The position numbers and the translations under genes were made by a program. From a virus (Duplodnaviria; Caudoviricetes): a DNA stretch of 64,000 nt. Under the pieces are notes generated by a model. The model was not told where the DNA came from. It was given only the letters and a program-made list of their open reading frames with translations, and searched no databases. The DNA is taken from the IMG/VR virus record IMGVR_UViG_3300024344_003081. One strand, 5' to 3'. Positions 1 through 31,170 of the stretch are shown in pieces (the stretch's first letter is position 1; each line of letters begins with the position of its first letter).

Positions 1-32
1 AAATGTTTAGGAAGAATGATTGTAAATGAAAC

Positions 33-1223
33 ATGGAAGAGTTAATCTGTACATATCAACAAAATCATTTATCGATAACACAACCTGAAGGTAAAATAAC
101 TCCATGTTGTCATTTCGACAATAAACCTTATCCACATTGGGATGAAGTAAATTTAAACTCAGTAAATTCTTTAAGTAAATTACTCAAATCTTATAGATGG
201 TTTGAATTGAGAGATATTTTTTCTGAAGGTATAAAATATGAAGGATGTATAAATTGCTGGAATGCTGAAAAAATAGGATATTTGAGTAAAAGAGAATATT
301 ATAATCTTATTTCAGAGAAATATGAAAAAGAAAAAATAGAAGATTTAGAAATTGCTCTAGATTTTAATTGTAATTTCATGTGTAGATCATGTAGACCAGG
401 TATAAGTTCAAAATGGAATACAGCAACATCTGTTATAGATCAATTAAAAGAATTTGAAAAAGATCATTATGAACCATTATCTATTGACAATTATTCTTTC
501 AAGTTGCGAACAATATTAGAACAATCTGACCTTTCAAATTTAAAAAGAGTTGCGATAGTTGGAGGGGAGCCTTTTTTAAGTTATAATTTAAAATGGTTTT
601 TAAATAGTTTAAATTTAGAAAATATACAATTAAAAATTACTACTAATGGAAGTATTTTTCCAGATAAAGAATTGATGGAATTGATGAATAGATGTAAAAA
701 TGTTTATTTAGATATAAGTATTGATGCAATTGATGATTTAGCAGAAGTGATGAGATTTGGGGCTCCTTGGAAAATGATAGTTAATAATATTGAGAAATTT
801 TTAAAAACAGATTTTATTGTTAAATTGGTAACTACTGTGAGTATAATGAATATAAATAAATTGCAAAGTATTTTAGAGTTTTCTAGAAAATATAATTTAC
901 CACAAACATGTTATTCGCTTTTTTGGCCCAATCATTTAAGATCAAATATTGTTCCTTTAGATATAAGAAAATCTTGGACTATTAATCTTCCTCAAAAATT
1001 GAATATAATAGAATTTATGGGATATAAACATAAAAATTATAATGATGTTGAAGATTTTAATACTATAATATTAGATGAAACACAATCAGAGAATAATTTA
1101 TTAGAATTTGTCAAAACAATGAATTATCTTGATGAATTTCAAAATAAAAAATTTTCTGATGTAAATTCTGAAATATGGGAGTTAGCACATACATGCGAGA
1201 GAGTAAAAAAATATTATGCTTAG
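33..1223 (+). CDS. Radical SAM protein with N-terminal SPASM/twitch-like Cys domain
   Basis: CxxxCxxC (CNFMCRSC), GGEPF, TNG, SIDA motifs; N-terminal PCC...CxxC. Confidence 0.9.
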   Translation: MEELICTYQQNHLSITQPEGKITPCCHFDNKPYPHWDEVNLNSVNSLSKLLKSYRWFELRDIFSEGIKYEGCINCWNAEKIGYLSKREYYNLISEKYEKEKIEDLEIALDFNCNFMCRSCRPGISSKWNTATSVIDQLKEFEKDHYEPLSIDNYSFKLRTILEQSDLSNLKRVAIVGGEPFLSYNLKWFLNSLNLENIQLKITTNGSIFPDKELMELMNRCKNVYLDISIDAIDDLAEVMRFGAPWKMIVNNIEKFLKTDFIVKLVTTVSIMNINKLQSILEFSRKYNLPQTCYSLFWPNHLRSNIVPLDIRKSWTINLPQKLNIIEFMGYKHKNYNDVEDFNTIILDETQSENNLLEFVKTMNYLDEFQNKKFSDVNSEIWELAHTCERVKKYYA

Positions 1224-1918
1224 GATGTAGTTATACAGATAAAAATTATAGACCTGATCTTACATTTTTAAGATGGCCTGAAATTTTAGGTCAAGAGTTA
1301 AATGTTGAAATTATTAATTTAGGTCAAACTGCAGTTGGAAATGAAAAAATTTTTTATATTTTATATGATTATTTATATGATAATTCTGATATAACTGATG
1401 TATGCATTTTATGGACAGGATGGGATAGACAAAGTTTTTTCGAAACAGATTCTAAAGACATAACCTCTTCTCTTATTATGAGAATGATACAAGAATATGA
1501 AAGAGGCCTGCCGCATGGTTTTGCATATAAACATTTTTCATTAGAAAAAGTGGTTAATTTAAATTTAAGAATGTTTTATATGACTAAACAATTATGTGAA
1601 TCTAAAGATATAAATTATCTTTGTAGTCAAGGCATTAGTCCTTTACAAATATCAAAACTTGAAAAATTTAAACTTCAAGGTTATAATGCTCCCTATGATA
1701 TTTTTAATCTTGGTGAATTTACAAATTTATGTAAGAAAAATCGTTATTGGGAAGGACATATGCCCAATCTTTTACATATTTTAGATTATGAAAATAAAAA
1801 AGAGTTTCATATAAGTAAAGAAGATTTTCATCCTAATGAATTGGGACATAAAGCTATATCAAATTATTTTTTAACATATTATAAAAATGATATGGAAGGT
1901 GATTTTATATATGAATGA
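1193..1918 (+). CDS. SGNH/GDSL hydrolase-like protein
   Basis: GCSYT block I, GN block II, C-terminal DFHPNELGH (DxHP); start set at ATG 1193 overlapping the previous gene. Confidence 0.75.
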   Translation: MRESKKILCLGCSYTDKNYRPDLTFLRWPEILGQELNVEIINLGQTAVGNEKIFYILYDYLYDNSDITDVCILWTGWDRQSFFETDSKDITSSLIMRMIQEYERGLPHGFAYKHFSLEKVVNLNLRMFYMTKQLCESKDINYLCSQGISPLQISKLEKFKLQGYNAPYDIFNLGEFTNLCKKNRYWEGHMPNLLHILDYENKKEFHISKEDFHPNELGHKAISNYFLTYYKNDMEGDFIYE

Positions 1919-2741
1919 AACATATAGTGCTATAAAAGGAGGAAGAAGATATTTTGGTGAAATGAAAAATAATTTAGAACATGGATTGGGTTTTTATGAT
2001 ATTGAATTATGGAATCAAAAGTTTGTTGGAGAATTTTTAAATGATAAAGCAACAGGAATAGGTTTAAAAATTCAAGGTTCAGGAACAGATTGGGAACGAA
2101 AAATTGTTTGTGAATTTAATAATAATTCACATGAAGGTATAGGAATGTATAAGTGGCCTTCGGGAGCAACATATGTTGGCGAATTTAAAGATGATCGTGC
2201 TTATGGTATGGGATGTTTCAGGATATGGAATGGAAATAAATATTTTGGAAAAATGGGTATTGGTCCTATGGGAATGAAGGGTGATGATTTTTGGATAATG
2301 GGTGATGGAAAATGGACAGACTCTTTATCGCATAATTTTGATGAACATGGTTTTTGTAAAAAAAAGAATAAAGAGATATGGCCTGATGGAACTTACTATG
2401 TTGGCGAATTTGATGATCATGAAAATTATTGTGGAACTGGTACATTGATATTTTCTAAAAGTAGATTTTATGAAGGTGAATTTTTAAATGGGTATTTTCA
2501 TGGACAGGGTATTTTTTATCATGGAAATGAATATGTGATGGGCGAATTTAAAGATGGTCATGTGCATGGATATGGTGAAGCAATATTTAACACAGGAAGT
2601 TATAAAGGATATTGGCAAAAAAATAGATTTCATGGAAAAGGAATTTTAAAATTTAAAGATGAAACATATGATGGTGAATTTTATAACATAAACATAAATG
2701 ATTCAGGAGGTCGTGATACAGGTTTTCGTAGGTTACGATAA
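1911..2741 (+). CDS. MORN-repeat protein
   Basis: Repeated YxGEFxxGxxHGxGxxxxxxG units (YEGEFLNGYFHGQG, YKGYWQKNRFHGKG); likely start ATG 1911. Confidence 0.85.
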   Translation: MNETYSAIKGGRRYFGEMKNNLEHGLGFYDIELWNQKFVGEFLNDKATGIGLKIQGSGTDWERKIVCEFNNNSHEGIGMYKWPSGATYVGEFKDDRAYGMGCFRIWNGNKYFGKMGIGPMGMKGDDFWIMGDGKWTDSLSHNFDEHGFCKKKNKEIWPDGTYYVGEFDDHENYCGTGTLIFSKSRFYEGEFLNGYFHGQGIFYHGNEYVMGEFKDGHVHGYGEAIFNTGSYKGYWQKNRFHGKGILKFKDETYDGEFYNININDSGGRDTGFRRLR

Positions 2742-3303
2742 TGAAAGATCATGGATACATGATAATTGTATAGACAGTTTAAAAAAATTTGGATGTCAAT
2801 CAAATCCCATAGGCTCTTCTTTATTAAGTTCAACTATATGGTATAGAGAAAGGAATATTAAAGATTCAACTGAGTTTTCTGTGTGTAGATTTTTAGTTCC
2901 GTTTCTTTCTAATTTTGAAGGATGGTCTATTTTTATGGATGATGATTTTATATGGAAAGTAGATCCAATGGAATTAAAACAATTTTGTGATCCATCAAAA
3001 TCAGTATTGGTATGTCAGCATAATTATACACCCAAAACTGAAAAAAAATGGGGTGATTTAATTCAGTTTAAATACGAAAGAAAAAATTGGTCTTCATTGA
3101 TGTTATTTAATAATTCACATTCAGATTGCCGAAAATTATCAGTTCGAATGATTAATAGCATTCAGCCTTTGTGGTTGCATCAATTTAAATGGACCTCATC
3201 AATTGGAAGCATACCTTTAGAATATAATCATCTTGTGGGAGAATATGATAACATAGAAGAAGCAAAAGCATTGCATTATACAAACGGATATGATAACAGT
3301 TAA
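2698..3303 (+). CDS. Phage glycosyltransferase (GT-A, GT8-like)
   Basis: GYD...STEFS..RFLVPFL...FMDDDF...RKNWSSLMLFN pattern seen in T4-like phage GTs. Confidence 0.75.
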   Translation: MIQEVVIQVFVGYDNERSWIHDNCIDSLKKFGCQSNPIGSSLLSSTIWYRERNIKDSTEFSVCRFLVPFLSNFEGWSIFMDDDFIWKVDPMELKQFCDPSKSVLVCQHNYTPKTEKKWGDLIQFKYERKNWSSLMLFNNSHSDCRKLSVRMINSIQPLWLHQFKWTSSIGSIPLEYNHLVGEYDNIEEAKALHYTNGYDNS

Positions 3304-4333
3304 AACAATAATAGAAAGTCCAAAAGAATTTAAAGATAAAGAATCTTTTAAATCTTTTATGGTAAAAGAATATGCTCCAGAATCTTCTAGTATTAGAAAA
3401 TATAATTTCGATTTAATGGATAAATATGGACATTGTTTCTTCAATTTACAATTTCTTCCTCCAAATACAGGAGTTCTTTATCATAGATATCATACACAAG
3501 AAGAATATGAAAAAAGTATTCCTTTAAGAGAAGAACAGGAGAGAGAATTTATAAATGCGGGATTAAAATATGAATATGAACTTAACTCAAAAATATCTAT
3601 TATTGATGAAGAAGAATATGAAAAATTACATATATCAGAACTTGCCCCAATAGATATAAAAATTGATGTAGAATATTTTTTAGAAGAAATTGTACAATAT
3701 AAAAAATATTTTAAACAATGGGGTGATAAATTTCAAGATTATGGAAGATTTGGATTACCATTAGTTAACATGAACGGAATGATTGATAATGAAATAGAAC
3801 CTTCATGTTGGCCTTTAGATAGATGGAATTTTGTTAATTTGGGTTATAGAGATACTCCAGAAGATTTTACTAAATTTTATACAAATTCTTTTGATATGTC
3901 TACTATGGTAAATGAAACAGATTTTACATTTAAAACAGAAGTTATGAACATACCTTCATTAAAAGTTTTAAAGCCCATTGAAAAATATATGATTCGTTCT
4001 TGTATTTTAAAATTTCATACACTTGCACATTTTAAACCCCATGTAGACACCTGGAAAGAAAAATCTTCTTGGTTACGATTGTGGGGCACTACTCATCCTG
4101 ATTCTGTAAAATTACGTTATAAATCTGATGAAGGGGAAAAATTAGTGTGGAATGATATTAAAAAAGAATATGAAAGTTATATTCCTATAGAAAATATAGA
4201 AGCAGGAAGATTATATTTACATGATAGTTCAATATGGCATGATGCAATGTCATTTGAAGATAATACATATCAATTTTTTATTGCATTATCACCAAATGCT
4301 TTTCAAACATTGGGAGCGTTATGTATAGAGTAG
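3290..4333 (+). CDS. Putative 2OG/Fe(II) oxygenase (Asp/Asn beta-hydroxylase-like) with N-terminal extension
   Basis: HxD...H facial triad candidate (PHVD ... WHDA) in the C-terminal part. Confidence 0.55.
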   Translation: MITVKTIIESPKEFKDKESFKSFMVKEYAPESSSIRKYNFDLMDKYGHCFFNLQFLPPNTGVLYHRYHTQEEYEKSIPLREEQEREFINAGLKYEYELNSKISIIDEEEYEKLHISELAPIDIKIDVEYFLEEIVQYKKYFKQWGDKFQDYGRFGLPLVNMNGMIDNEIEPSCWPLDRWNFVNLGYRDTPEDFTKFYTNSFDMSTMVNETDFTFKTEVMNIPSLKVLKPIEKYMIRSCILKFHTLAHFKPHVDTWKEKSSWLRLWGTTHPDSVKLRYKSDEGEKLVWNDIKKEYESYIPIENIEAGRLYLHDSSIWHDAMSFEDNTYQFFIALSPNAFQTLGALCIE

Positions 4334-4842
4334 AAGATAATTTTTATGATTTTCCAATATTTTTAGAAATATTGAATTTAATTAAAGATAGACCTCTTAA
4401 TCAAATACCAGAGAAATATGATGGGAAGAGATGTTCTTATGGTGAAACTAGACAATATTTAACTGAAGATTCTGTTCTTGCTGATCTTATACTTTCTAAA
4501 TTTCCTTATAAAAAAGATTATAGAAGAAAAATAGAAATAGGTAATGATGTAAATGGTTTTTGGTTAAAACCGCATTCTGATCATTCAGCAAAAAAAGATG
4601 TTACAGTAATTTATTTTGAAGGTCAACAAAATAACGGAACTACTTTTCATTATGAAGATCATAATGAAACAACGGAATTTATTCCTAATAGAGCGGTTCA
4701 TTTTTATCCTGATTTAAAAGATACTTATGATTCTGAAAGTTGGAAACATTCAGTTAAAAAAATTGATATGAATGTTAGACGAACTATAGTTGTAAATTAT
4801 GTTGATAATACTTGGAGGGATATAGAAGATTGTTATGATTGA
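4321..4842 (+). CDS. 2OG/Fe(II) oxygenase
   Basis: PHSD...GT...KHSV...RRTIVVNY. Confidence 0.75.
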   Translation: MYRVEDNFYDFPIFLEILNLIKDRPLNQIPEKYDGKRCSYGETRQYLTEDSVLADLILSKFPYKKDYRRKIEIGNDVNGFWLKPHSDHSAKKDVTVIYFEGQQNNGTTFHYEDHNETTEFIPNRAVHFYPDLKDTYDSESWKHSVKKIDMNVRRTIVVNYVDNTWRDIEDCYD

Positions 4843-5419
4843 TCGAATAGGAAAATTGTTGGATCTGAATAAAATAAAAGAATTTTTTAACAGATCAGAT
4901 AAAGAACAATTTGAATATACAGGATTAGAACGTACAGATGGATTAGCAAATCATGGATATAGAGGATTAGGAGAAGAATTAGCGGCAAAGGAAAGTTATA
5001 ATTTTTCAAGACATCATGGATATAATCCTTTTGAATCTGAAGAAATTTTTGATTCTTTAGATGATATTGTTAGAAAATATTATGATGAAGATTTTGATGC
5101 AATTCTTAGAATAACACATTACCCTAAAATAAAATTAAAAATTACTGGCAATGATAGTGAAGGAGAAGGTGATAAAATTTTTAGATTATGTTCACATAAA
5201 GATTATGGTCCCCTAACCTTATATTATGAATATACTCCCAATACAGGATTTCAAATTTTTAGAAATGAAGAATGGATAGATCCTGGATCTTGTATTATTT
5301 GGAATGAACTACATCGGGTAGTATATACAGATCCCATAAAAGAAAGATGGACTGTGACTTATCATGTAGATTATAAAGATTGTAAGATTTCAATGAATAC
5401 TAGATTAGGAATAAAATGA
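4835..5419 (+). CDS. 2OG/Fe(II) oxygenase, IPNS-like
   Basis: LRITHYP...HKDYGPLTL...GFQI...HRVV...RWT. Confidence 0.8.
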   Translation: MIDRIGKLLDLNKIKEFFNRSDKEQFEYTGLERTDGLANHGYRGLGEELAAKESYNFSRHHGYNPFESEEIFDSLDDIVRKYYDEDFDAILRITHYPKIKLKITGNDSEGEGDKIFRLCSHKDYGPLTLYYEYTPNTGFQIFRNEEWIDPGSCIIWNELHRVVYTDPIKERWTVTYHVDYKDCKISMNTRLGIK

Positions 5420-6234
5420 ATGAATTTACTTCTAGCAATCATATTAATTTTAGAGCCGCCCAATATAGTAATTTAAATTCTGTTTTAGGAATGTCTACTC
5501 TTGAAATAAATCCAACAGAACTTTGTAATAGGACATGTAGTTTTTGTCCCAGAGGAGATTGGTATCCCAATAAAAATGAACATTTATCAATAGATGATAC
5601 ATATTTAATTAAAAAAAGACTTGATGAATTTGAATATCAAGGAATTATTATTATAAGCGGTAAAGGGGAGCCTCTACTACATCCAAATATTTTTAAGATT
5701 GTTAATGTATTTAAAAATGAATGGATAGAATTAATCACAAATGGTGATAATATATTAGAATCACCAGATATATTAGATAAATTGTTTGATAGCGGATTAA
5801 GTAGAATAATTTTAGATGAATATGATAATGAAGAAAATTATAATAAAAAAATAGAAATTTTGGGCGATAGATGTGGAGTAGTAAAAAATCATTTTACAGG
5901 AATATTACAATCTTCAATTTATAACAATAGATCGGGATCTTTTAAAACTATAGAAAAGTCATTAGATAGAAAATGTTATTTACCTTTTTATAAAGGATAT
6001 ATTGATTTGACCATGGACCTTAGATTTTGTTGTAATGATTGGAAATATAAAGAAAGTTTGGGAAATTTAAGAGAAAATACATTAAAAGAACTTTGGATGT
6101 CTGATAAAATGAATAGATATAGAAAAGAATTATCTAAAGGTAATAGATGTAATATAATATCGTGTAAAGAATGTGATGCAAATGGATTGTTATTGGGTGA
6201 AAATAGTTATAATGAATTGATGGAGATTATATGA
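5416..6234 (+). CDS. Radical SAM protein with C-terminal SPASM
   Basis: CNRTCSFC, GEPLLHP, C-terminal C...CC...C..C. Confidence 0.9.
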   Translation: MNEFTSSNHINFRAAQYSNLNSVLGMSTLEINPTELCNRTCSFCPRGDWYPNKNEHLSIDDTYLIKKRLDEFEYQGIIIISGKGEPLLHPNIFKIVNVFKNEWIELITNGDNILESPDILDKLFDSGLSRIILDEYDNEENYNKKIEILGDRCGVVKNHFTGILQSSIYNNRSGSFKTIEKSLDRKCYLPFYKGYIDLTMDLRFCCNDWKYKESLGNLRENTLKELWMSDKMNRYRKELSKGNRCNIISCKECDANGLLLGENSYNELMEII

Positions 6235-6902
6235 AATATGCAATGATAGCTTGCAGACTTGGTAGCACAAGAGCAAAATTTAAAAATTTAGCATTAATAG
6301 GTGGAGAGCCCATGATGGCATGGGCTACAAAAGCCGCTCTTGAATCAAATTGTTTTGATAAAGTCATAATTAATGGAGATAATGATATTTTTAAGCAGAT
6401 TGCAGAAGAATATGGTGTTGAATATTATGAAAGACCTATAGAATTGGGTTCATCTGAAACATTAATTGATGATGTATTTTATGATTTTATAGAAAAAAAT
6501 CCATGTGAAACTGCCGCAATAGTAAATACAGTTAATCCTCTGCAAACAGGAGAAGAAGTTGCTAAAGCAATGGCTTATTATGAAGATAATAAATTAGATT
6601 CTTGTAATACATATGAATTAAAATATGTTCATACGTGTTTAGGAGATACTCCTATTAATTTTGAATACGGTAAGATGTGTAAGACTCAAGATTTAGAACC
6701 TATAAAGTCAATAGCTTATTCTGTTCAAATAGTAAGAACGAAAGTTTTTATGAAAGAAAAACATATTTTTTGTGGAAAACATGGAATGTATGGTCCTATA
6801 TCAAAAAAAGCAGGAATGTTAGTTAAAACTCCCGAAGATATTAAGATAATAAATGCTATATTGCATTATCATTCATCAATTGGATATTATGAGGGACGAT
6901 AA
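6231..6902 (+). CDS. Acylneuraminate cytidylyltransferase family (NeuA/KdsB-like)
   Basis: ACRLGSTRAKFKNL...GEPM, YERPIEL, PLQT. Confidence 0.85.
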   Translation: MKYAMIACRLGSTRAKFKNLALIGGEPMMAWATKAALESNCFDKVIINGDNDIFKQIAEEYGVEYYERPIELGSSETLIDDVFYDFIEKNPCETAAIVNTVNPLQTGEEVAKAMAYYEDNKLDSCNTYELKYVHTCLGDTPINFEYGKMCKTQDLEPIKSIAYSVQIVRTKVFMKEKHIFCGKHGMYGPISKKAGMLVKTPEDIKIINAILHYHSSIGYYEGR

Positions 6903-7845
6903 AAAACATATAAAACTTCTTAAACGTGAAAGATCAAAAGGAGTTAATAAAAAAGGACTACCATTAGATAAAAATGAAAGAATTATTCCATTTTCTAAAT
7001 TTGAATTAGATGATTTGAGAAAACATTTGGGTACTAATCTTTGGAAATATCCTGATGTAGATGCATATTATAAAATTTTTGCCGATTGGTTGAAAATAGA
7101 TGAAAAGAAATTATTTTTTACTGAAGGAGTGTCTGGTGCTATTAGGTCTTTAATGGAATTATATGCCTCAAAAACAGTATATTATGATACTCCTACTTAT
7201 GCTATGTATGATGTTTATTCTGAAATTTTTAATTTGATTCATGCTCCTATGGAAAATGCTGATATAATATTTTTACAAAATCCAAATATTCCTTATGGCA
7301 CTACTTATAGTGAAGATCAAATTCGTAAAATATGTTTACTTAATTCAATGAAATTAATTGTATTAGATGATGTATATTTCGAATTTAATATGCCAGATCA
7401 TCTTTGGTTGATAGATGAAATTAAAAATTTGGTAATTATGAGAAGTTTTTCTAAAGCATTTGGATTAGCAAGTATTAGATTGGGTTATATAGTTTCAAAT
7501 GAAGAAAATATTAAATTTATTTCGAATAATAGAAATGGATATGAAACTAATTTATTATCTTTACAAACGGCTCATTATTTTATTCGTAATGAATCAATAA
7601 AAAATAATTATATTAATCAATTAAATTTTGGTCGTGATTATTTAATGGAACAATTGGATAGAATGAATATTGAAAGAGAAGGAGGATATTGTGGTAATTT
7701 TGTTTTTATTCGTACAGATCCTAAAAATACAGACAAACTTGCGGAAAAAGGTATTCTTGTAAGAAAATGTGATGATGGTATAAGAGTAACATTGGGTCCT
7801 AGAAATGAAATGGAGAAATTTATTGCTGTATTCAGAGACCTCTAA
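6889..7845 (+). CDS. PLP aminotransferase class I/II (HisC/CobD-like)
   Basis: NPN.P.G, DDVY, RSFSKAFGLASIRLGY; start set at ATG 6889. Confidence 0.88.
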   Translation: MRDDKKHIKLLKRERSKGVNKKGLPLDKNERIIPFSKFELDDLRKHLGTNLWKYPDVDAYYKIFADWLKIDEKKLFFTEGVSGAIRSLMELYASKTVYYDTPTYAMYDVYSEIFNLIHAPMENADIIFLQNPNIPYGTTYSEDQIRKICLLNSMKLIVLDDVYFEFNMPDHLWLIDEIKNLVIMRSFSKAFGLASIRLGYIVSNEENIKFISNNRNGYETNLLSLQTAHYFIRNESIKNNYINQLNFGRDYLMEQLDRMNIEREGGYCGNFVFIRTDPKNTDKLAEKGILVRKCDDGIRVTLGPRNEMEKFIAVFRDL

Positions 7846-8485
7846 TTTTGCTTTTTTCTTATGTCATAGTAATGCTAATCATTCTATTTGTATGGCTTTA
7901 GAAACTTTAATGGATCGTGAACACGATTATTCTTGGGACTGGGAAAATAGAAGCGAATATGGTTATAAACATGTATCACCATCGGGATTATTGTCTACAG
8001 ATTCTTTTAATTTTAAAGAAATAATAGGAGACGAATGGTATGATTTAAAAAAAATAACTACTGTTAGAAATCCCTGGTCTCGATTATATGATTTTTATAC
8101 TTGGCATTTTACTATAGAACGACCAATAAAAAAAATAGAACAAAAAATTTATGATTTTACAATATCAAAAAGTAGTTTTGATGAATGGATATCTTCTTTA
8201 GAAAAAGATAAAACTTTTGATTGGTGGGGAGAAATTTTTAATCAAGAAATTATGAGAAGACATTGTAATTATGTTATTAGATATGAGTATTTGAATGAAG
8301 ATATTAATAATATATTTCCAGGATTAAAGATTCCTTCTGCATCTGTATCTCATCCTGGTCAATGGTATGCGGAAGACAATAAATATTTAATGACTATTAA
8401 AACTAAAAATATTATTAACTATTTTTGTAAAGAAGATATTATAAATTACGAATATACATATGACGGAGAACAAACACTTAGTTAG
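7805..8485 (+). CDS. Sulfotransferase family 2-like protein (degenerate 5'-PAPS loop)
   Basis: VRNPWSRLYDFY and IRYEYLNED motifs; HIPKT motif not conserved. Confidence 0.55.
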   Translation: MKWRNLLLYSETSNFAFFLCHSNANHSICMALETLMDREHDYSWDWENRSEYGYKHVSPSGLLSTDSFNFKEIIGDEWYDLKKITTVRNPWSRLYDFYTWHFTIERPIKKIEQKIYDFTISKSSFDEWISSLEKDKTFDWWGEIFNQEIMRRHCNYVIRYEYLNEDINNIFPGLKIPSASVSHPGQWYAEDNKYLMTIKTKNIINYFCKEDIINYEYTYDGEQTLS

Positions 8486-11978: not shown

Positions 11979-11985
11979 CAGGAAG

Positions 11986-11992: not shown

Positions 11993-12030
11993 GTTAAAAA
12001 TAATTAAGAACAATCTCAGAGGAACAAATT

Positions 12031-12630: not shown

Positions 12631-12653
12631 ATTTTTTAAAAATATATTATTTA

Positions 12654-23050: not shown

Positions 23051-23810
23051 TCTTAGATTTGTATTTCCAGTAAATCAACCTGGACTTGGTGATAGATTTA
23101 TCATGACTTCAAATATTCTTTATGCTAGAAAAGAAGTTGAGCATGAATGTTGTATTATTGATATTTTTCTTAAAAATATCAAGCCAAGTAAGGATTATGA
23201 GTTTGATCAAAAACAATATTTAAATCTTACAGATTTTTATGATATTATAGATTTTTTTCATTTTAAAAGACCAGATAAAAGTGAACCATTAATAATTTCA
23301 AATATAATAGATGAAGAACCTCCTCCATTTCATGCCAGCACAGGTCACCGTAATATTGAGTATGAAATAACAAATAATGAATATAAGAGAAGCCACAATT
23401 TTCTTTATAATCGAGAACAATATTGGCCTATAAATTATGATAAAACTATAAAAAAAGATATTATAACATTTATGTTTTATGTAGATGATTCATTACCCGA
23501 ACATAAATTTATTACAGTAGAGGAAGAAAAAGAATTTCAATTATTAAAAACGAATTTATCATCATTTAATTTTCATCGTTTAGAAGATTTTAATTTTAAA
23601 AAAAATGTAGAATTATTATCTAGAAGTAAGTTATTAATATCATCAGAAGGAATGTGGACACATCTTTCAAGAGCAATGGATATTGATACTATTACGATTT
23701 CAAGAGATTCTAAGTTTATTAAAGAATTTACTCGACAAGGTTATTTTTGTTCTGGAATTCAAGAATGTTTAAATGAATTAGAAAAAAGATGTCATGAATC
23801 ACAGGTCTAG
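23031..23810 (+). CDS. GT-B/GT9-like glycosyltransferase, paralog 1
   Basis: GLGD N-terminal motif; C-terminal ISSEGMWTHLSRAM resembles GT9 DSG..HLA.A. Confidence 0.5.
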   Translation: MNRKKNNLRFVFPVNQPGLGDRFIMTSNILYARKEVEHECCIIDIFLKNIKPSKDYEFDQKQYLNLTDFYDIIDFFHFKRPDKSEPLIISNIIDEEPPPFHASTGHRNIEYEITNNEYKRSHNFLYNREQYWPINYDKTIKKDIITFMFYVDDSLPEHKFITVEEEKEFQLLKTNLSSFNFHRLEDFNFKKNVELLSRSKLLISSEGMWTHLSRAMDIDTITISRDSKFIKEFTRQGYFCSGIQECLNELEKRCHESQV

Positions 23811-23898
23811 TTATTGGGAAACAGGTTATTTTAAAAAAAAGAATCTTAGATTTGTATTTCCAGTAAATCAACCTGGACTGGGTGATAGATTTATCATG
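23049..23898 (+). repeat. Direct repeat from tandem gene duplication
   Basis: 23049-23105 vs 23842-23898 match at 56/57 nt; further shared blocks continue through both genes. Confidence 0.9.
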
Positions 23899-24663
23899 GC
23901 CTCAAATATTCTTTTTACTATGAAAGAAGTTGAACACGAATCTTGTATTGTTGATATTTTTCTTAAAAACACAAAGACGGTGCATAAAAGCCAGTATTTA
24001 AATCTTATAGATTTTTATGATATTATAGATTTTTTTCATTTTAAAAGACCAGATGAAAGTGAATCATCAATAATTACAAATATAATAGATGAAGCTCCTC
24101 CTACATATAAAGAGATATTGGCTTCAAAACGAAAAAATATTACAGGTGATGTTGCTTGTCATGATTTTAATTCTAGATATAATGAATATGTTATAAGTAA
24201 TTATTTTCTTTATAACGAAGCACGATATTGGCCTATAAATTATGATAAAACTGCAAAAAAGCAACTTATAACATTTATGTTTTATGTAGATGATTCAGTA
24301 CCCGAACATAAATTTATCACAACAGAGGAAGAAAAAGAATTTAATAAGGTAAAAGATTATTATGGACATTATTTTCATCGACATGAATATTATTTTGTTC
24401 GTTTAGAAGATTTTAATTATAAAAGAAATATAGAATTATTATCTAAAAGTTTGTTTTTAATAGCATCAGAAGGAATGTGGACCCATTTATCTAGAGCAAT
24501 GAAAGTTAATACCATAGCATATTCTAGGGATATTACTTTTATTGAGGAATTTAATAAACAGGGACATTTTTGTTCTGGATTTTTTGAAAAATGTTTAATT
24601 GAATTAGAAAAAAAATGTATAGAATTAAAAAAGAAGAGCAACTTTATAAGTTTGAAGAGATAA
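23794..24663 (+). CDS. GT-B/GT9-like glycosyltransferase, paralog 2
   Basis: Tandem paralog of 23031-23810 with the same motifs. Confidence 0.5.
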   Translation: MNHRSSYWETGYFKKKNLRFVFPVNQPGLGDRFIMASNILFTMKEVEHESCIVDIFLKNTKTVHKSQYLNLIDFYDIIDFFHFKRPDESESSIITNIIDEAPPTYKEILASKRKNITGDVACHDFNSRYNEYVISNYFLYNEARYWPINYDKTAKKQLITFMFYVDDSVPEHKFITTEEEKEFNKVKDYYGHYFHRHEYYFVRLEDFNYKRNIELLSKSLFLIASEGMWTHLSRAMKVNTIAYSRDITFIEEFNKQGHFCSGFFEKCLIELEKKCIELKKKSNFISLKR

Positions 24664-25682
24664 AACATATACATTTTGAACCTACGCAAAGATGTCAGGC
24701 GGCGTGTCCTATGTGTGATAGAACTAATAATCCACATATAAAAAATGCTGAACTTTCTATAGAACAATTTAAACAAATTGTAAATGCTAATTTAGCAAAA
24801 CAATTAAATAGTTTTCTTATGTGTGGTAATCATGGAGATCCTATGATTGCAAAGGATACCCTTGAAATGTTTGACTGGTTACGCTATAATAATAATGAAC
24901 TATATCTTCATATGACTACAAATGCTGGAGGACGATCTGATGATTGGTGGAAAAGACTTGCGGAAATTTTTGGTGATTATGGAAAAGTATCTTTTTCAGT
25001 AGATGGTTTAGAAGACACAAATCATTTATATCGAGTAAATGTAGATTGGAATCGTGTTGAAAATTCAATGGATGTTTTTACTCAAGCAGGAGGAAAAGGT
25101 TATTGGGTATTTTTAATATTTGAACATAATGAACATCAAGTAGAAGAAGCAGAACGAATGGCTAAATTATTTGGACTTGAATTTGTGAGAAAAAAGTCTG
25201 GAAGATGGGTGCAAAGTTATAAAAATAAGAAAATTGACAAAAAGATAACCACTAAGGGGAATGAGATTAAGCCACCAGCTAATCCAGAGAATCAGAATAA
25301 GAGTGTTAACAGTTATGATAAATTGATTAAAAGTCATGGTTCCTTTCAAGAGTATTTAGATAAAACAAAAATAAAATGTAAGTCAATAGATACTAAAGAA
25401 ATTTTTATTTCAGCAGAAGGTCTTGTGACTCCTTGTTGTTGGACTGCTGGAAAATTATATAAAGTATATGAAAAAATAGGACAAAATCAAATATGGTCTT
25501 ATATAGATGATATTAAAAATATTAATGCTTTATATAAACCTTTAAATGAAATTATTGAAGGAGATTTTTTTAAAAAGATTAAACAATCTTGGAATTTGCC
25601 TTCTTGTTCACAAGGAAAATCAAAAGTTTGTGCAGAGAAGTGTGGTACTGATTTTAACGCATTTGCAGATCAATGGAAATAA
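24615..25682 (+). CDS. Radical SAM protein with C-terminal SPASM
   Basis: CQAACPMC, CGNHGDP, TTNAG, SVDGL, PCC...CAEKC. Confidence 0.92.
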   Translation: MYRIKKEEQLYKFEEIKHIHFEPTQRCQAACPMCDRTNNPHIKNAELSIEQFKQIVNANLAKQLNSFLMCGNHGDPMIAKDTLEMFDWLRYNNNELYLHMTTNAGGRSDDWWKRLAEIFGDYGKVSFSVDGLEDTNHLYRVNVDWNRVENSMDVFTQAGGKGYWVFLIFEHNEHQVEEAERMAKLFGLEFVRKKSGRWVQSYKNKKIDKKITTKGNEIKPPANPENQNKSVNSYDKLIKSHGSFQEYLDKTKIKCKSIDTKEIFISAEGLVTPCCWTAGKLYKVYEKIGQNQIWSYIDDIKNINALYKPLNEIIEGDFFKKIKQSWNLPSCSQGKSKVCAEKCGTDFNAFADQWK

Positions 25683-26395
25683 AAATTAATTGTCTTAAAT
25701 GGGGAACAAAATATGATTCTTCATATGTTAATAGAACATATGGTGGGTTATTAAAACATTGTAATGAATCATTTCATTTCGTTTGTTATACTGATAATCC
25801 TAAGGGAATATCTTCTAAAATTGAAACAAAAGATATTGAAGAACTTAGACCATATAATACAAATATGATGTTTACATATGAAAAATTAATGCTGATAGAC
25901 AAAGACGAATATGATAAGAATCTCTGGATAGATTTAGATGTATTAGTACATGAAAATGTAACTGAATTAATAACAAGAAAGCATAATAATATTACATTTA
26001 TATGGAATTATTGGAATGATTATGAAAAAATAAGTTTATTTAATTTTGGTAGGGGAGTTTCTTGTCATGTAAATTCTTCATTTGTTGCATGGGATAAGGG
26101 AACAGCTTCTTGGCTTTTAAAATATACTAAAGAAAATTGGAAAAAAATAGAATGGACATATAAAAGTCTTGATAAGTATTTGTTTTATCAACATTACAGA
26201 AATAATAAAATTAATTTATGGGAAGATGGATTTTTTTCAAATTATAATAAAGAAAATTATAAATTAAAAAATAAAGTAACATTATTTAATACATCACATC
26301 TTTATAACAATAAAAATATGAAAGAAATTAAACATTACGAATTAGATGAATCACCAGTACAGGAATTATGGAAAAGTTATTCTCTTGGGTTGTAA
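25673..26395 (+). CDS. GT-A-like nucleotide-diphospho-sugar transferase
   Basis: CLKWGTKY..YVN, CYTD, DLD, NSS motifs. Confidence 0.7.
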   Translation: MEIKINCLKWGTKYDSSYVNRTYGGLLKHCNESFHFVCYTDNPKGISSKIETKDIEELRPYNTNMMFTYEKLMLIDKDEYDKNLWIDLDVLVHENVTELITRKHNNITFIWNYWNDYEKISLFNFGRGVSCHVNSSFVAWDKGTASWLLKYTKENWKKIEWTYKSLDKYLFYQHYRNNKINLWEDGFFSNYNKENYKLKNKVTLFNTSHLYNNKNMKEIKHYELDESPVQELWKSYSLGL

Positions 26396-26787
26396 ATCAT
26401 GAAAAAATTTCTGTATTATGTTGTCCAAGTTTTAAATTTATTAAAACATTAAAAGGACTGGATATGGAGATTGATAATATAAATTATGATATTAATTTTA
26501 GAGATATGCCAAATGTGATTTGTAAAGATTTTGTATTTGATAATGTTAAATTATATAATTGTGTATTGCATTATAATTGTGAGAAAACATATCCTGTGGG
26601 ACGAATGCATGAAGGAATTTTTATATTAAGGGGTGATGATAAAGAACATAATGGTGATTGTAATCCTATTCATTCGATTGATAAATTAATAGATGATAAT
26701 GAATTGACAGAAGTTTTTGATTCATTTGAAATACAAAGTAAAAATAAAAAATACAAACATTATTGTGTATATGGAACAAATCTATAA
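26368..26787 (+). CDS. Hypothetical protein, distantly resembles the C-terminus of the next gene
   Basis: NCEK...DCNPI.SIDKLI vs SSEH...HINCV..VDELI. Confidence 0.5.
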   Translation: MEKLFSWVVNHEKISVLCCPSFKFIKTLKGLDMEIDNINYDINFRDMPNVICKDFVFDNVKLYNCVLHYNCEKTYPVGRMHEGIFILRGDDKEHNGDCNPIHSIDKLIDDNELTEVFDSFEIQSKNKKYKHYCVYGTNL

Positions 26788-27541
26788 TTGGAGAAAAAAT
26801 AAAAACGATATAAGTTTGCACAATATTGAAATAGGTTCTTATAATGAAAAGATTGGAGAACTTAAAGAAGAAATAGGTTCTATTAGAGAGACTATTGGAG
26901 AACATAGAGAACAAATTTCTATATGTGAAAATGATAATAGAGAAACACCATATTATTGGGTCAATCAATGGGTTAATAATAATTTGCCTTCATATTCTAA
27001 TAGTTTTGAAGACTCTGTATCTCAAGGACAATATGAATCTAAATTATGGTTAAATGAAAAATTAGAAAAATTTATTTCTATGCCAGAACTTCATATTGAT
27101 ATTATCGGTTCTTGGTTTGGATTTCCTTTAATAGAAATGTTAGCAAATGCGTTTGATATAAAACAAATAGATTTATATGATATTGATGAGGATTGTCATA
27201 AAGTAACTGCTCAATATATAAATCATTTTGATTGTGATTTTAAAATAGTGCAATTTAAAGATTTTTTTGAACGTAAAGAAATGAGAAGAAGACATTTAAT
27301 TATTAATACATCATCTGAACATATGTCTGATATAGTTCTTATGAAAGAATATTATAAAGATTATCCAGTAAAACCTATTTTAGCAATACAATCAAATAAT
27401 TATTTTGATGTTGAAGATCATATAAATTGTGTAAAAGAGGTTGATGAATTAATAGAAAAAAATCAAATTAAAAATGTTTTGTATAAAGGAAAACGTTCTT
27501 TGCCATTATATGATAGATTTATGGTGATAGGTAAATGGTAG
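26771..27541 (+). CDS. Class I SAM-dependent methyltransferase-like protein
   Basis: IIGSWFG glycine loop, YDID, INTSSEHM; ATG 26771. Confidence 0.6.
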   Translation: MEQIYNWRKNKNDISLHNIEIGSYNEKIGELKEEIGSIRETIGEHREQISICENDNRETPYYWVNQWVNNNLPSYSNSFEDSVSQGQYESKLWLNEKLEKFISMPELHIDIIGSWFGFPLIEMLANAFDIKQIDLYDIDEDCHKVTAQYINHFDCDFKIVQFKDFFERKEMRRRHLIINTSSEHMSDIVLMKEYYKDYPVKPILAIQSNNYFDVEDHINCVKEVDELIEKNQIKNVLYKGKRSLPLYDRFMVIGKW

Positions 27542-28104
27542 TTATTGTTCTTGTACGCACAGGAAGTAAATATGATGAATGGTATGAAAATAATATCATT
27601 TATATGATACGTAAATTTGGAGAAATGAAAAGATGTGAATATTATATTATAAGAGAGGGAGAAGGTAGTGTATATGATAAACTTAAAATGTTTAAGGAAT
27701 GTACTGATGATGTAAATTATTTATATTTTGACTTAGATATTATTATTAAGAAGCCCATAGACTATTTAATTAAAGATGATTTTACACTTGTTAATGCTTG
27801 GTGGAGGGCGCCATTTCATACTCCTTTGAATTCTTCAATAATGTCATGGAAAGGAAATTATTCTCATATTTATGACAAATTTTATGAAGATGAAGATTAT
27901 AGCAGAGTAAAATATTGGAAAGGTATTGATGAATATATTTACAAAGAAATGGAGTATAATACTTATGATGATAAAGTATGTTGGTCTTATCCCTGGAATA
28001 GACAAGAATTAGATTATTCTATTTGTTTGTTCAATCATGAATTTGCTCCTGCAATGAGAATAAAAGGATGGATGGAAAAATATGTGTTATTAGAAACTTC
28101 TTAA
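27535..28104 (+). CDS. GT-A-like transferase
   Basis: VRTGSKY, YFDLD, NSSIMSW. Confidence 0.65.
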   Translation: MVVIVLVRTGSKYDEWYENNIIYMIRKFGEMKRCEYYIIREGEGSVYDKLKMFKECTDDVNYLYFDLDIIIKKPIDYLIKDDFTLVNAWWRAPFHTPLNSSIMSWKGNYSHIYDKFYEDEDYSRVKYWKGIDEYIYKEMEYNTYDDKVCWSYPWNRQELDYSICLFNHEFAPAMRIKGWMEKYVLLETS

Positions 28105-28601
28105 CAGAAGAAGAATGTTTTAATTTTATTATAACTTATAGAAAAAAAGTTCGGCGAGCCGGAGTTATAAATGAAGAATTTTCTGATTATCGAAGATCAA
28201 AAGTTTTTATTTGGCATAAAGATTCTTTTTTAGAAAACAAATTTAATTGTTCTAATATGATATTTCAATTTTCAGAATATTCTAAATTAAATTATTATCA
28301 TTGGCATAATGATTTTAATACTACTCAATCGGAGCGTAAAAGAATAGAAACATGTGTGGTGCCTTTAAATGAGGAATATCAAGGAGGTCTTTTTGAAATT
28401 AAAGATCAAGATCCAATTGAATTAAATGTAGGAGATTGTCTTAGATTTGATTCAAAATTAGAACATAGAGTTAATCCTGTATTAAAAGGAAAAAGATATT
28501 CTTTAACTGCTTGGGTTATTGAACAAAAGTCAATAAAACATTATTTTGAAGATGAAATTTATAAACATCTTGTAATTGCAAACGATTTGGAATTAATATG
28601 A
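28068..28601 (+). CDS. 2OG/Fe(II) oxygenase, prolyl-4-hydroxylase-like
   Basis: YHWHND...YQGG...HRVNPVLKGKRYSL. Confidence 0.88.
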   Translation: MDGKICVIRNFLTEEECFNFIITYRKKVRRAGVINEEFSDYRRSKVFIWHKDSFLENKFNCSNMIFQFSEYSKLNYYHWHNDFNTTQSERKRIETCVVPLNEEYQGGLFEIKDQDPIELNVGDCLRFDSKLEHRVNPVLKGKRYSLTAWVIEQKSIKHYFEDEIYKHLVIANDLELI

Positions 28602-29677
28602 CAGATAAAACATCCGATATAGTTTTGATACATGCTTATTTGTCTGATGAAGAAAGAAAATCAGTTTGTCATAAATTTATAAAACAATTTAAATCTTTTG
28701 GGTATGATGTTATAATCACAAGTCATTTGCCCCTTGATAAAGATACACAAGAATTGGTTGATTATGCAATTTATGATAAAGATAATATTTTGTTAAATGA
28801 TCCTACACTTAAAGGATATTTGGTAAATTATGCTTATGCTCCTGATGATGAAGGAAATCCTATACCCCTTTTTAATATTGCAAGTAGAGAATTTTTTAAA
28901 AATAATACAATACTTGCAGTTTTACGTTTATTGCTTGCTGGTGTTACGTATGCAAAACTTCTTAATAAAAAAATAATACATTTATTTGATTATGATGGAT
29001 TTTTGCCTACTGATGAAGAGTTAATAAAAAATAGCGATATTATATTGAATCAAGGAAAACAAGCAGTATTTTATGAACGTGAGACAGAAAATTTAGATGC
29101 CGAACATTGGGGCGAAAGAAGAATTAGACATTGGCAAATTATGACATTAATTATGTCTTGTAATGTAGATTTTTTATATCGAAGATTGAATATGTATTCT
29201 GATGATCATCTTAAAAAAATGATTACTTATAAAGGTATGCAAATGGGAGAAGAGTTATTAGGATATGTTCTTGGGGTGTCTTATTTAAATAAAGAAAAAG
29301 ATACTTTTGAAGAAAACATTGAAATAAAAAATCTTGAAGAAAGTTCTCAAAGAATAGGTTTTGAAAAACAAAAAGTTTATACTGATGCTGAATTTCCTTG
29401 GATATGTCTTGCAAAAGATCCGGCACAAGATGGATATAGATTTTTTGCTATGCCACCGAAAGGAACAATTCATGTGAAAGTTTTTTATAATCATAATTTA
29501 TATTCTGCATTTACTTGTTCTGATTGGGGATATAGAACAGATTATTTTGCTTCAGAAGGACTTGAAAATATAACAATTCATGTGAATGATGAATTTTTTA
29601 GAGAATATGATTTTACTGATCCAAAAACAGAAGCACTTATTTTAATGAATAGTATTTGGACTGATGCACCAAAATAA
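28598..29677 (+). CDS. Hypothetical protein, possibly GT-A-like
   Basis: Long coupled ORF; TSH...YDKDN and DYD motifs; weak assignment. Confidence 0.5.
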   Translation: MTDKTSDIVLIHAYLSDEERKSVCHKFIKQFKSFGYDVIITSHLPLDKDTQELVDYAIYDKDNILLNDPTLKGYLVNYAYAPDDEGNPIPLFNIASREFFKNNTILAVLRLLLAGVTYAKLLNKKIIHLFDYDGFLPTDEELIKNSDIILNQGKQAVFYERETENLDAEHWGERRIRHWQIMTLIMSCNVDFLYRRLNMYSDDHLKKMITYKGMQMGEELLGYVLGVSYLNKEKDTFEENIEIKNLEESSQRIGFEKQKVYTDAEFPWICLAKDPAQDGYRFFAMPPKGTIHVKVFYNHNLYSAFTCSDWGYRTDYFASEGLENITIHVNDEFFREYDFTDPKTEALILMNSIWTDAPK

Positions 29678-30452
29678 AATAACTATTATAATTCATACAT
29701 GTGATGAATACAGTCATTTTTGGGATGGTTGGTATACCATGTTCGATCATTTTGGATTTTTAGATTTAGGATGGCCCATACATTTTTGCAATGAAGAAGT
29801 AGATTTGCCTTTTAATGATCAGAGAATAACTCAGATTAAAACAGGTAAAAGTAAAAAGTATATGGGAGTTGAATGGAGAGAATGGTTACCTACTTTTGGG
29901 GGACCTAAACAAGTTGATGAAGGATGGAGTGATAGACTTATAGCATCTTTAAATTCAACTCAAACAAAGTATGTTTTATACATGCAAGAAGATCAATGGC
30001 CTTTTAAACAGATTAATGTAAATTTATTTAATAAATTATTAAATTTCGTATCTATTCATGATATAAATGGATTAAGATTACATCGACTTATATCTTCTTA
30101 TGATCTAAATGAATTTGAAGAAACAGACTATTATATAGACAATAAAAAAGTTTTAAGAGTCAAAAGGGATGCCGGTTTTTTATTATGTCATCAACCTACT
30201 ATTTGGAATAAAGACTTTTTATTAGATGTGAGTATTCATGGAGAAGGGTTTAGAGATAATGAATATGCTGGAAGTGAAAGAGTTAGAGAAAAATATAAAG
30301 ATCCAAAAATTTTTGTATATAATCATCATTGGTTTTTAGAAAAATCTGCTTCTTCTGCTGGTTTATGGATACCAGAAATTGAATGGGAATATAGAGAAGT
30401 TGCAAGAGAACGTGATGTTTATAAACATTTTAATATGATTAAAAATGAATAA
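29664..30452 (+). CDS. GT-A-like transferase
   Basis: HTCD.Y...W, YVLYMQED, HQPTIWNK. Confidence 0.6.
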   Translation: MHQNKITIIIHTCDEYSHFWDGWYTMFDHFGFLDLGWPIHFCNEEVDLPFNDQRITQIKTGKSKKYMGVEWREWLPTFGGPKQVDEGWSDRLIASLNSTQTKYVLYMQEDQWPFKQINVNLFNKLLNFVSIHDINGLRLHRLISSYDLNEFEETDYYIDNKKVLRVKRDAGFLLCHQPTIWNKDFLLDVSIHGEGFRDNEYAGSERVREKYKDPKIFVYNHHWFLEKSASSAGLWIPEIEWEYREVARERDVYKHFNMIKNE

Positions 30453-31170
30453 AACAAAAGTTTTTGCAGTTAGAATAGGCGACAAGTATGGACAAGATGT
30501 AGAAAATTACATTGAATCCAAAATTTCAAATGTAACTTGGATTCGTGATGAATTACCAGATGTAAAATTACAATGGAATAAGTTACGAGTTATGAATATG
30601 GACATAGATGAACCTGTTCTTGTGATTGATATAGATATGCTTTTTATGAATGATTATGTTAAAGCAATAGATTATCCAATTAAAAAAGGTGAATTTTTAA
30701 CTGCAAAGTCTTGGTGGAAAGATACTTGGAATGAAAATTATTCTTTATGTGGGGGATTTCAAAAATATTATCCAAAAGATTGTAAATACATTTATGATGA
30801 ATTTATGAGTAATATTGATTATTGGTCACAATATTATATTACACGTAAAATAACAATTGGACCAGTTAATGGAGAGCAATATTTTGTAGAAGATCAAGTA
30901 AAGAATCGACTAAAATTAAAATATCTTCCAGAAACATGGATGTCTAGGATGTGTAATAAAAATGATTTAGAAGAACTTGCTTTAATAAATTCTCAATATC
31001 CAGGAGAATATGTTTATTTAGATGGGTTTCATAATGATATCAAAATAATACATTTTAAAGATTATGAAATAGATTATTCTTTTTCTTCTGGATATAGTTC
31101 CGCATCTCTTTCTGCTTCAACATCAGGTGTTTCTTCTTCACCTTCACCCTCATTAAGAATTTCAGAATAA
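30445..31170 (+). CDS. GT-A-like transferase with Ser-rich tail
   Basis: VRIGDKY, WNKL, DID, GEQ; last 97 nt overlap a minus-strand gene. Confidence 0.65.
   Translation: MNKTKVFAVRIGDKYGQDVENYIESKISNVTWIRDELPDVKLQWNKLRVMNMDIDEPVLVIDIDMLFMNDYVKAIDYPIKKGEFLTAKSWWKDTWNENYSLCGGFQKYYPKDCKYIYDEFMSNIDYWSQYYITRKITIGPVNGEQYFVEDQVKNRLKLKYLPETWMSRMCNKNDLEELALINSQYPGEYVYLDGFHNDIKIIHFKDYEIDYSFSSGYSSASLSASTSGVSSSPSPSLRISE

Follow-up and report, generated by a model that had tools for sequence, protein, structure and literature searches.

Relation to described phage systems

Clusters of radical S-adenosylmethionine (SAM) enzymes have been found in several T4-like phages. The Campylobacter phages CP220 and CPt10 carry 11–12 radical SAM genes, five of which form, in each phage, an exchangeable cluster with a putative glycine amidinotransferase (PMC2853527). 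The marine T4-like genome TARA_ERS488813_N000010 has 12 such genes, which were noted in a discussion of Fe–S metabolism (PMC5332604), and the islands of pelagimyophages vary by radical SAM cassettes between close relatives (PMC7029224). In these papers the genes were read as a metabolic boost or as Fe–S related, and no core, cellular counterpart or product was defined. A trio of aminotransferase, radical SAM and amidinotransferase genes in cyanophage S-SCSM2R was read as 'antibiotic synthesis genes' (PMC12801897). Here we describe an enzyme island with 11 radical SAM genes at positions 1–31170 of a 64,000-nucleotide stretch (the window) of the viral record IMGVR_UViG_3300024344_003081. Radical-SAM-rich T4-like phages are already published; new here are a defined conserved core and its cellular counterpart.

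The product is most likely sugar-based and made by a dedicated tailoring pathway. We give about an even chance to the more specific reading that the block is a cytoplasmic sugar or glycan tailoring island of a marine T4-like myovirus, with the glycan possibly placed on protein. A preliminary description of the sequence had proposed a pathway that builds or installs an unusual modification, either a virion glycan, a protein modification or a DNA base. The dedicated enzyme set stands, but a DNA base is disfavoured; a glycan is favoured because enzymes of sugar type surround the radical SAM enzymes, the related loci of Bdellovibrionota are rich in glycosyltransferases (GTs), and a TibC-type protein adjoins the block.

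The window belongs to a T4-like myovirus of about 27% G+C. Its first 31170 positions hold 38 plus-strand open reading frames (ORFs, named below by their first position), 37 of at least 80 amino acids and a conserved one of 74 amino acids (21310–21534). The ORFs overlap at 35 of the 37 junctions, which implies co-translation, and about 99.8% of the block is coding; the sole gaps, of 52 and 23 bases, lie on both sides of ORF 12031–12630. The picture of about 40 co-oriented, mostly overlapping genes given in the preliminary description is thereby borne out, as is its statement that no replication or structural core gene interrupts the run: in family scans of the window ORFs no T4 replication or structural family was matched before gp59 at 39315. 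The island proteins are all soluble, with no convincing membrane segment in any of them. The block is truncated by the start of the window. In the contig of a close relative (L002) further tailoring genes are found in the 10 kb that precede the ortholog of the first gene: two radical SAM genes, a 2-oxoglutarate (2OG) oxygenase, a fragment of a DegT/DnrJ/EryC1 sugar aminotransferase, a carbamoyltransferase, a flavin halogenase and an AMP-binding fragment. At the other end the enzyme region extends functionally to 39091.

Radical SAM enzymes

All 11 genes that had been listed as radical SAM pass PF04055 (30.1–58.4 bits, gathering score 29.5 bits) and carry one CxxxCxxC motif each; two of the starts first given, 14819 and 18001, are alternative starts of ORFs 14729–15955 and 17968–18930. 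Classification of each enzyme with profile models, as had been suggested, separated five members of NF033640, three enzymes with a C-terminal SPASM/twitch module, one pair and one short SPASM enzyme.

33–1223 (+): radical SAM, N-terminal twitch (NF033640, 201.6 bits); PF04055 48.2 bits; Cys 6, 25, 26, 72 and 75, motif at 113
5416–6234 (+): short radical SAM, C-terminal SPASM; PF04055 43.9, PF13186 33.9 bits
12654–14084 (+): core radical SAM 1, N-terminal twitch; NF033640 397.5 bits; the most conserved gene
14729–15955 (+): radical SAM with no twitch or SPASM match; PF04055 39.4 bits; distant paralog of 20267
15952–17040 (+): radical SAM, N-terminal twitch; NF033640 235.6 bits
17028–18014 (+): radical SAM, C-terminal SPASM/twitch; PF04055 30.1 bits, SPASM 17.6 bits (below cut-off)
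17968–18930 (+): radical SAM, C-terminal SPASM/twitch; PF04055 43.4, SPASM 25.0 bits; 29% identity to 17028
18924–20270 (+): radical SAM, N-terminal twitch; NF033640 198.7 bits
20267–21334 (+): core radical SAM 2; PF04055 58.4 bits
21521–23050 (+): radical SAM, N-terminal twitch; NF033640 208.8 bits; insert of about 75 amino acids
24615–25682 (+): core radical SAM 3, C-terminal SPASM/twitch; PF04055 39.3 bits

The five enzymes that fit NF033640 (N_Twi_rSAM) score 199–398 bits against a cut-off of 170 bits and have a C...CC...CxxC arrangement before the CxxxCxxC core, whereas the remaining six score 27–47 bits and are not members. NF033640 is a catalogue entry with no assigned reaction, and the island differs from it in combining five old paralogs with six other radical SAM enzymes. 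In four of the five the N-terminal module reads C-x17-24-CC-x36-122-CxxC; in 18924 a single Cys replaces the CC pair. The same kind of Cys module occurs C-terminally in 17028, 17968 and 24615, which are mutual paralogs. Above the PF13186 threshold of 21.5 bits a SPASM domain is found in 5416, in 17968 and, N-terminally, in 12654 (24.1 bits); 17028 and 24615 (18.3 bits) stay below it. The Cys pattern is present in all five. Altogether 9 of the 11 enzymes have a second Cys-rich module of the twitch/SPASM type, N-terminal in five and C-terminal in four, and the other two, 14729 and 20267, form a pair with no recognised auxiliary domain and 25% mutual identity. Since the radical SAM paralogs are only 20–32% identical, the set is old and has diversified, and does not stem from recent tandem amplification. 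Assignment of 20267 (44.0 bits) and 14729 (38.6 bits) to the prokaryotic viperins (NF038283, cut-off 180 bits) was rejected, and membership of the QueE family was likewise rejected on score.

An AlphaFold2 model of the 12654 product (pLDDT 81.5) retrieved BlsE, SkfB, viperin, CteB, MoaA and SuiB about equally, with Z scores of 9–10. ORF 21521 has an unusual composition: residues 43–116 of its product are 59% identical (E 1e-22) to residues 275–349 of ORF 55123–59064, a structural protein of 1313 amino acids. This insert (window 21641–21874, source region 55945–56169) lies within a loop of the twitch domain, is not present in the 21521 orthologs of related loci, and has the appearance of a virion-protein module that was recently copied into the enzyme.

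SPASM and twitch enzymes are often peptide maturases. The radical SAM enzymes might accordingly have a peptide or virion proteins as direct substrates and introduce thioether or C–C cross-links or epimerised residues, with the other enzymes decorating the polypeptide, a scenario that we consider unlikely. It would agree with the presence of SkfB and CteB, maturases of ribosomally synthesised and post-translationally modified peptides (RiPPs), among the best PDB neighbours of the 12654 model, with the structural-protein module in 21521 and with the conserved 74-residue ORF inside the block. However, the structural likeness of 12654 is confined to the common radical SAM core (TM about 0.3), the partner enzymes are of sugar or small-molecule type, and the block encodes no Cys-rich or repeat precursor, peptidase, transporter or exporter. 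The 74-residue ORF is not Cys-rich and occurs in only eight related loci, and no small ORF is conserved beside the core genes across the 58 Bdellovibrionota loci described below. Assignment as a RiPP cluster is not supported, as there is no precursor-like small ORF, peptidase or membrane protein in the block; hypervariable precursors could escape such an inspection.

A conserved core in phages and Bdellovibrionota

A search of IMG/VR with 12654 gave 45 viral loci. The stretch 12654–25682 recurs in them at 55–95% identity with shuffled gene order, while the upstream 12 kb are common to only 2–3 contigs. A synteny survey, which the preliminary description had suggested, therefore has a divided outcome: the same genes recur, but their order is shuffled and cassettes vary, which points to exchangeable cassettes around a core and not to one fixed operon. 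In complete relatives of 167, 177 and 328 kb the Radical_SAM family is matched 16, 15 and 22 times. At E ≤1e-10 the 12654 product has more than 3,000 counterparts among metagenome proteins, with no functional name among the best 120 matches listed, and the Atlas clusters nearest to it are almost wholly viral. Related phage loci also encode free-standing small Cys-rich proteins, of about 102 amino acids in L024–L026 and L032–L034 and of about 120 amino acids in L003, L011, L012 and L023, which look like isolated twitch/SPASM modules.

Comparison with three relatives gave dN/dS values of 0.07–0.18 for the core radical SAM genes (12654, 0.07–0.13; 20267, 0.07–0.12; 24615, 0.12–0.16) and of 0.12–0.39 for other genes. 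Purifying selection is seen for every island gene that was compared.

A search of genomes, one for each species, found 73 loci, mostly on Bdellovibrionota chromosomes, among them that of an isolate Bdellovibrio and complete chromosomes of metagenome-assembled genomes. The 58 Bdellovibrionota loci were taken as the base for family counts. They include 55 loci with N-twitch radical SAM enzymes (123 copies), 47 with the SPASM group, 44 with the 20267 type and 30 with the 26717 type. Phages and bacteria share a core of four genes, the radical SAM genes 12654, 20267 and 24615 and the gene of a methyltransferase-fold protein, which is preceded in the block by a short relative.

26717–27541 (+): core methyltransferase-fold protein; AlphaFold2 model pLDDT 84.3
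26368–26787 (+): short ORF related to 26717; hhalign 95.5% between the two

The 26717 model resembles the class I SAM methyltransferases BioC, MtmC, KijD1 and CmoA in a Foldseek search, MtmC and KijD1 being sugar C-methyltransferases. Identity to the Bdellovibrionota orthologs is about 51% for 12654, 53–62% for 20267, 35–43% for 24615, whose orthologs span 35–49%, and about 31% for 26717. In the isolate Bdellovibrio sp. HCB2-146 (L119) the core lies amid GT2 genes and an acetyltransferase gene identified with Pfam; adjoining it, at 17278–21377 of that locus, is a protein of 1959 amino acids with a Peptidase_S74 domain, which is typical of phage tail-spike and fibre proteins. Another locus (L121) combines the core with GT2 genes, five more radical SAM genes and a QueC-like gene. 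GT2, carbamoyltransferase and SDR families are recurrent neighbours of the core. The bacterial loci thus resemble the island in their clustered core orthologs, extra N-twitch paralogs and QueC-like genes, and differ in being cellular and GC-richer and in having these neighbours instead of the phage upstream module. A quick tree placed the viral clade inside the Bdellovibrionota diversity, beside Bacteriovoracaceae and Halobacteriovoraceae (SH-aLRT 89–90); in view of this moderate support and of a root on very long paralog branches, the nesting is treated as a lead only. No paper on Bdellovibrionota radical SAM loci was found in the literature.

The variable gene order raises the question whether there is a common pathway at all, or only a zone where auxiliary genes of unrelated function, each mobile on its own, have accumulated. 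That cassettes come and go between relatives, that pelagimyophage islands differ in the same way by radical SAM cassettes (PMC7029224), and that the upstream 12 kb are found in so few contigs would fit such a zone. It is nevertheless quite improbable in view of the fixed four-gene core that spans phages and a bacterial phylum, the overlapping junctions with their implied co-translation and the purifying selection on every gene tested. The same observations, with orthologs in dozens of contigs, uphold the earlier view of a dedicated set as opposed to decayed or randomly assorted genes.

Partner enzymes

Most other genes of the block encode candidate tailoring enzymes or proteins of no recognised family.

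1175–1918 (+): SGNH/GDSL-hydrolase-like by motifs only, a tentative reading; no Pfam, NCBIfam or PHROG match
1887–2741 (+): MORN-repeat protein; PF02493 51.6 bits
3290–4333 (+): oxygenase-like, HxD...H invariant in the alignment; found in 12 related loci; no PDB sequence match
4321–4842 (+): small oxygenase-like ORF; HxD...H motif only
4835–5419 (+): small oxygenase-like ORF; 2OG-FeII_Oxy 18.4 bits, below cut-off
6231–6902 (+): CMP-sugar-type cytidylyltransferase (PseF/KdsB-like); PF02348 57.6 bits; TIGR03584 PseF 55.8 bits, below cut-off
6853–7845 (+): class I/II pyridoxal phosphate-dependent aminotransferase (HisC/CobD-like); PF00155 83.1 bits; TIGR01141 169.6 bits, below cut-off
7805–8485 (+): sulfotransferase-like (weak); phrog_3347 Galactose-3-O-sulfotransferase, 1.1e-5
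8460–8888 (+): cupin/Asp-Arg-hydroxylase-like oxygenase (weak); PF05118 22.5 bits against a cut-off of 22.6 bits
8872–9246 and 9228–9734 (+): two ORFs with no family match
10986–11978 (+): putative amidinotransferase of the StrB1/AGAT/SxtG/HsvA family, from profile searches of the PDB
12031–12630 (+): ORF with no family match, between the two non-overlapping junctions
14074–14826 (+): QueC-like PP-loop ATPase; invariant SGGADS PP-loop and C-terminal Cys motif; PF06508 27.2 bits
21310–21534 (+): the conserved 74-residue ORF; no family match
28068–28601 (+): 2OG-Fe(II) oxygenase; PF13640 2OG-FeII_Oxy_3 55.7 bits
28598–29677 and 29664–30452 (+): two ORFs with no family match

Five oxygenases had been counted in the block. 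One of them, 28068–28601, passes its family model; 4835 and 8460 score below the cut-off, and 3290 and 4321 show only the HxD...H motif. Profile searches of the PDB gave nothing usable for the families of 26717, 25673, 3290 and 23794.

For 10986 the same type of search matched StrB1 (1bwd, 4.5e-31), HsvA (1.6e-27) and AGAT (about 1e-26), with HsvA and SxtG matched end to end. The family alignment keeps the C-terminal catalytic Cys motif GG-x-HC-x-T-x-D, with G318, G319, H321, T324 and D326 among the invariant columns. By sequence, the protein is a member of the amidinotransferase family. No Campylobacter phage was matched in tblastn searches with 12654, 10986 and 15952, so homology to the CP220 cluster is not supported.

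The amidinotransferase suggests a comparison with aminocyclitol biosynthesis, in which BtrN is a twitch enzyme of pathways of the 2-deoxystreptamine type. The island and the BtrN/StrB1 steps have in common a twitch radical SAM enzyme, an aminotransferase and a StrB1-family amidinotransferase; the island differs in having no significant BtrN sequence match, an N-terminal twitch domain, no cyclitol synthase and an aminotransferase of the HisC type. The block could accordingly make a diffusible small molecule, guanidinylated and carbamoylated and similar to an aminocyclitol, aminoglycoside or nucleoside, that acts on the host or on competitors. The combination of StrB1/SxtG-type amidinotransferase, aminotransferase and twitch radical SAM enzymes does mirror the oxidation, transamination and amidination that lead to streptidine and 2-deoxystreptamine, the close relative contributes the halogenase, the AMP-binding fragment and the carbamoyltransferase named above, and trios of this kind in S-SCSM2R were interpreted as antibiotic genes (PMC12801897). 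Yet no scaffold synthase, such as an inositol-phosphate or 2-deoxy-scyllo-inosose synthase, and no exporter or resistance gene accompanies them, and the many GT-like genes and two giant glycosyltransferases point to attachment to an acceptor, so that a diffusible product has only a small chance of being correct.

T4-type phages glycosylate DNA, and unusual DNA bases occur in the Campylobacter T4-like phages with many radical SAM genes. A hypermodified base or sugar on virion DNA therefore deserves consideration, as the QueC-like ATPase, the radical SAM enzymes and the amidinotransferase superficially recall 7-deazaguanine and archaeosine chemistry. The ATPase, however, was rejected as a true QueC, scoring 26.8 bits in TIGR00364 against a cut-off of 150.3 bits. 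The window contains no FolE, QueD or TGT/DpdA partner of the 7-deazaguanine pathway and no member of the ThyA/hydroxymethylase family, TGT and ThyA are also absent from three complete and two partial relatives (G001–G005), and the Bdellovibrionota counterparts lie in GT-rich chromosomal loci. Modification of DNA is thus very improbable.

A small version of the arrangement is found in the cultured T4-like Vibrio phage KVP40, where a QueC-like gene stands beside two radical SAM genes of the N-twitch type whose products are 22–26% identical to island enzymes (KVP40.0258–0261). KVP40 differs in having only 2–3 radical SAM copies, no visible GT or amidinotransferase gene nearby, and NAD salvage genes alongside. 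At 134159–135052 of KVP40 (L123) a NAPRTase-family protein is flanked by the QueC-like gene and the two N-twitch radical SAM genes, near nadV.

Glycosyltransferase-like genes and the TibC-type protein

The block had been described as containing many GT-like genes. About seven weakly GT-like proteins are indeed found, but the claim is soft because none of them passes a Pfam GT model inside 1–31170. Further downstream, outside the block, two large proteins are recognisable as glycosyltransferases.

2698–3303 (+): member of an unannotated phage family (phrog_28018 1.3e-38); GT-A-like solely from a DxD-type motif
9731–11011 (+): weak GT10 lead, score 0.79; no family match
23031–23810 and 23794–24663 (+): GT9-like (GT-B) tandem pair, 62% mutual identity
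25673–26395 (+): GT-A-like glycosyltransferase candidate; phrog_1962 glycosyltransferase 6.1e-5; invariant DLD; hhalign 96.6% to 27535
27535–28104 (+): GT-A-like candidate; hhalign links to 25673 and 30445
30445–31170 (+): GT-A-like, Ser-rich tail; hhalign 83.8% with 27535
33025–39091 (+): two multi-domain glycosyltransferases outside the block, GT1 + FkbM methyltransferase and GT2 + GT1 + GT9

The GT9-like pair lies amid the radical SAM genes. Atlas features (0.92) and fold comparison (TM about 0.58) relate it to GT9 and to clusters named Aah/TibC, with no PDB sequence match. Orthologs of 2698–3303 are 62–63% identical in two related loci (L001 and L002) and 62% identical in a third (L046). 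The final 30 or so residues of the 30445–31170 protein are very rich in Ser.

The second of the large proteins, ORF 35678–39091 (1137 amino acids), lies 4.5 kb downstream of the block and has GT2 and GT1 domains fused to a TibC-type end. Its residues 786–1130 align with TibC, an autotransporter heptosyltransferase of ETEC (4rb4/4rap), at E 3e-65 over 346 residues, covering chain residues 39–384 of 406 and including the C-terminal Cys-rich metal motif. The C-terminus is clearly a BAHT (TibC/Aah) domain, with putative protein O-heptosyltransferase activity; it differs from TibC and Aah by its fusion behind GT2 and GT1. This alignment makes protein a plausible acceptor in this phage. Outside the window the TibC-type domain was found in the closest relative only (81% identity). 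Ser/Thr density singled out no acceptor among the structural proteins of the window, and no paper on phage TibC-type enzymes was found.

Genomic setting

Downstream of the glycosyltransferases the window continues with replication and baseplate genes, the latter encoding proteins of the gp53, gp5, gp25 and gp6 families.

39315–39935: gp59 helicase loader, 3' of the block
39937–40821: gp32, 3' of the block

A Megablast search of cultured phages with the replication and baseplate region gave no match, which leaves no close cultured phage. The gp32 protein is 55–65% identical to those of cyanomyophages and of Methylophilales phage Melnitz. Metagenomes of marine plankton and of 'subsurface' origin, from at least 6 studies, contain near-identical DNA. 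The host recognition cluster of pelagimyophages and cyanomyophages is a variable island with tail fibre genes between VrlC and gp14 (PMC7029224). The present block was rejected as such a cluster, as it precedes gp59, gp32 and the baseplate module and contains no fibre gene; the window includes neither VrlC nor gp14. The T4 late-promoter word TATAAATA was seen 7 times in the window against 19 expected and never before the start of a plus-strand gene; being rarer than chance and not at gene starts, it allows no inference on timing. Within the baseplate module a minus-strand ORF at 44839–45327 encodes a protein with a TnsA-like endonuclease N-terminal domain (88.7 bits), which may be a mobile or homing-type nuclease.

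Possible pathway

In the glycan tailoring pathway that we favour, the radical SAM enzymes would act on C–H bonds of activated sugars or of units that resemble sugars. They might catalyse a BtrN-like oxidation of an alcohol to a ketone, epimerisation, deoxygenation or decarboxylation, and C-methylation. Keto products could be aminated by the aminotransferase and then guanidinylated by the amidinotransferase, and the QueC-like ATPase might amidate carboxylates. Other substituents could come from the methyltransferase, the oxygenases and the sulfotransferase-like protein, and one unit would be activated as a CMP or CDP derivative by the cytidylyltransferase. Assembly would be due to the GT-like proteins together with the two large multi-domain glycosyltransferases at 33025–39091. 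If the TibC-type domain acts as its homologs do, the chain would begin on a protein Ser, for which virion fibres or baseplate proteins are obvious candidates. Alternatively, the pathway could serve to remodel the host surface.

Several observations weigh against this proposal. Enzymes that start nucleotide-sugar synthesis (dehydratase, sugar-1-phosphate nucleotidylyltransferase, isomerase) were not seen in the window, the aminotransferase 6853–7845 is HisC-like and not of the usual DegT sugar type, and no protein inside 1–31170 passes a curated GT model. None of the 11 radical SAM enzymes belongs to a family of known reaction, and among the structural neighbours of 12654 the sugar or nucleotide enzymes (BlsE, viperin, MoaA) rank level with the peptide maturases (SkfB, CteB, SuiB). 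The bacterial loci are not uniform either: L120 has seven radical SAM genes and no GT gene, and GT2-like ORFs were detected by phmmer in only 22 of the 58 Bdellovibrionota loci. Three complete relatives with 15–22 radical SAM genes lack the TibC-type domain, so the radical SAM core is independent of it. No RNA run was found to contain the stretch.

Implications

Some 30 kb of iron-costly, oxygen-sensitive enzymes in sea water presumably gain the phage something important. NF033640 has no member of known reaction, yet complete relatives devote 15–22 genes to radical SAM enzymes; if the glycan reading is true, new radical sugar chemistry would be added. The defined conserved core and its cellular counterpart make the island testable, and the core common to cultured Bdellovibrio and the small version in KVP40 offer laboratory systems for doing so. 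A bolder and rather unlikely extension is that the three radical SAM enzymes and the methyltransferase-fold protein constitute an unrecognised, widespread radical sugar pathway that decorates prey-recognition proteins, the panel of enzymes tuning the host or prey range. Such a pathway would serve T4-like phages and Bdellovibrionota alike, both of which attack other bacteria. Should the product be a glycan carried by virion proteins or by the host surface, it would bear on host recognition and superinfection in abundant ocean phages.

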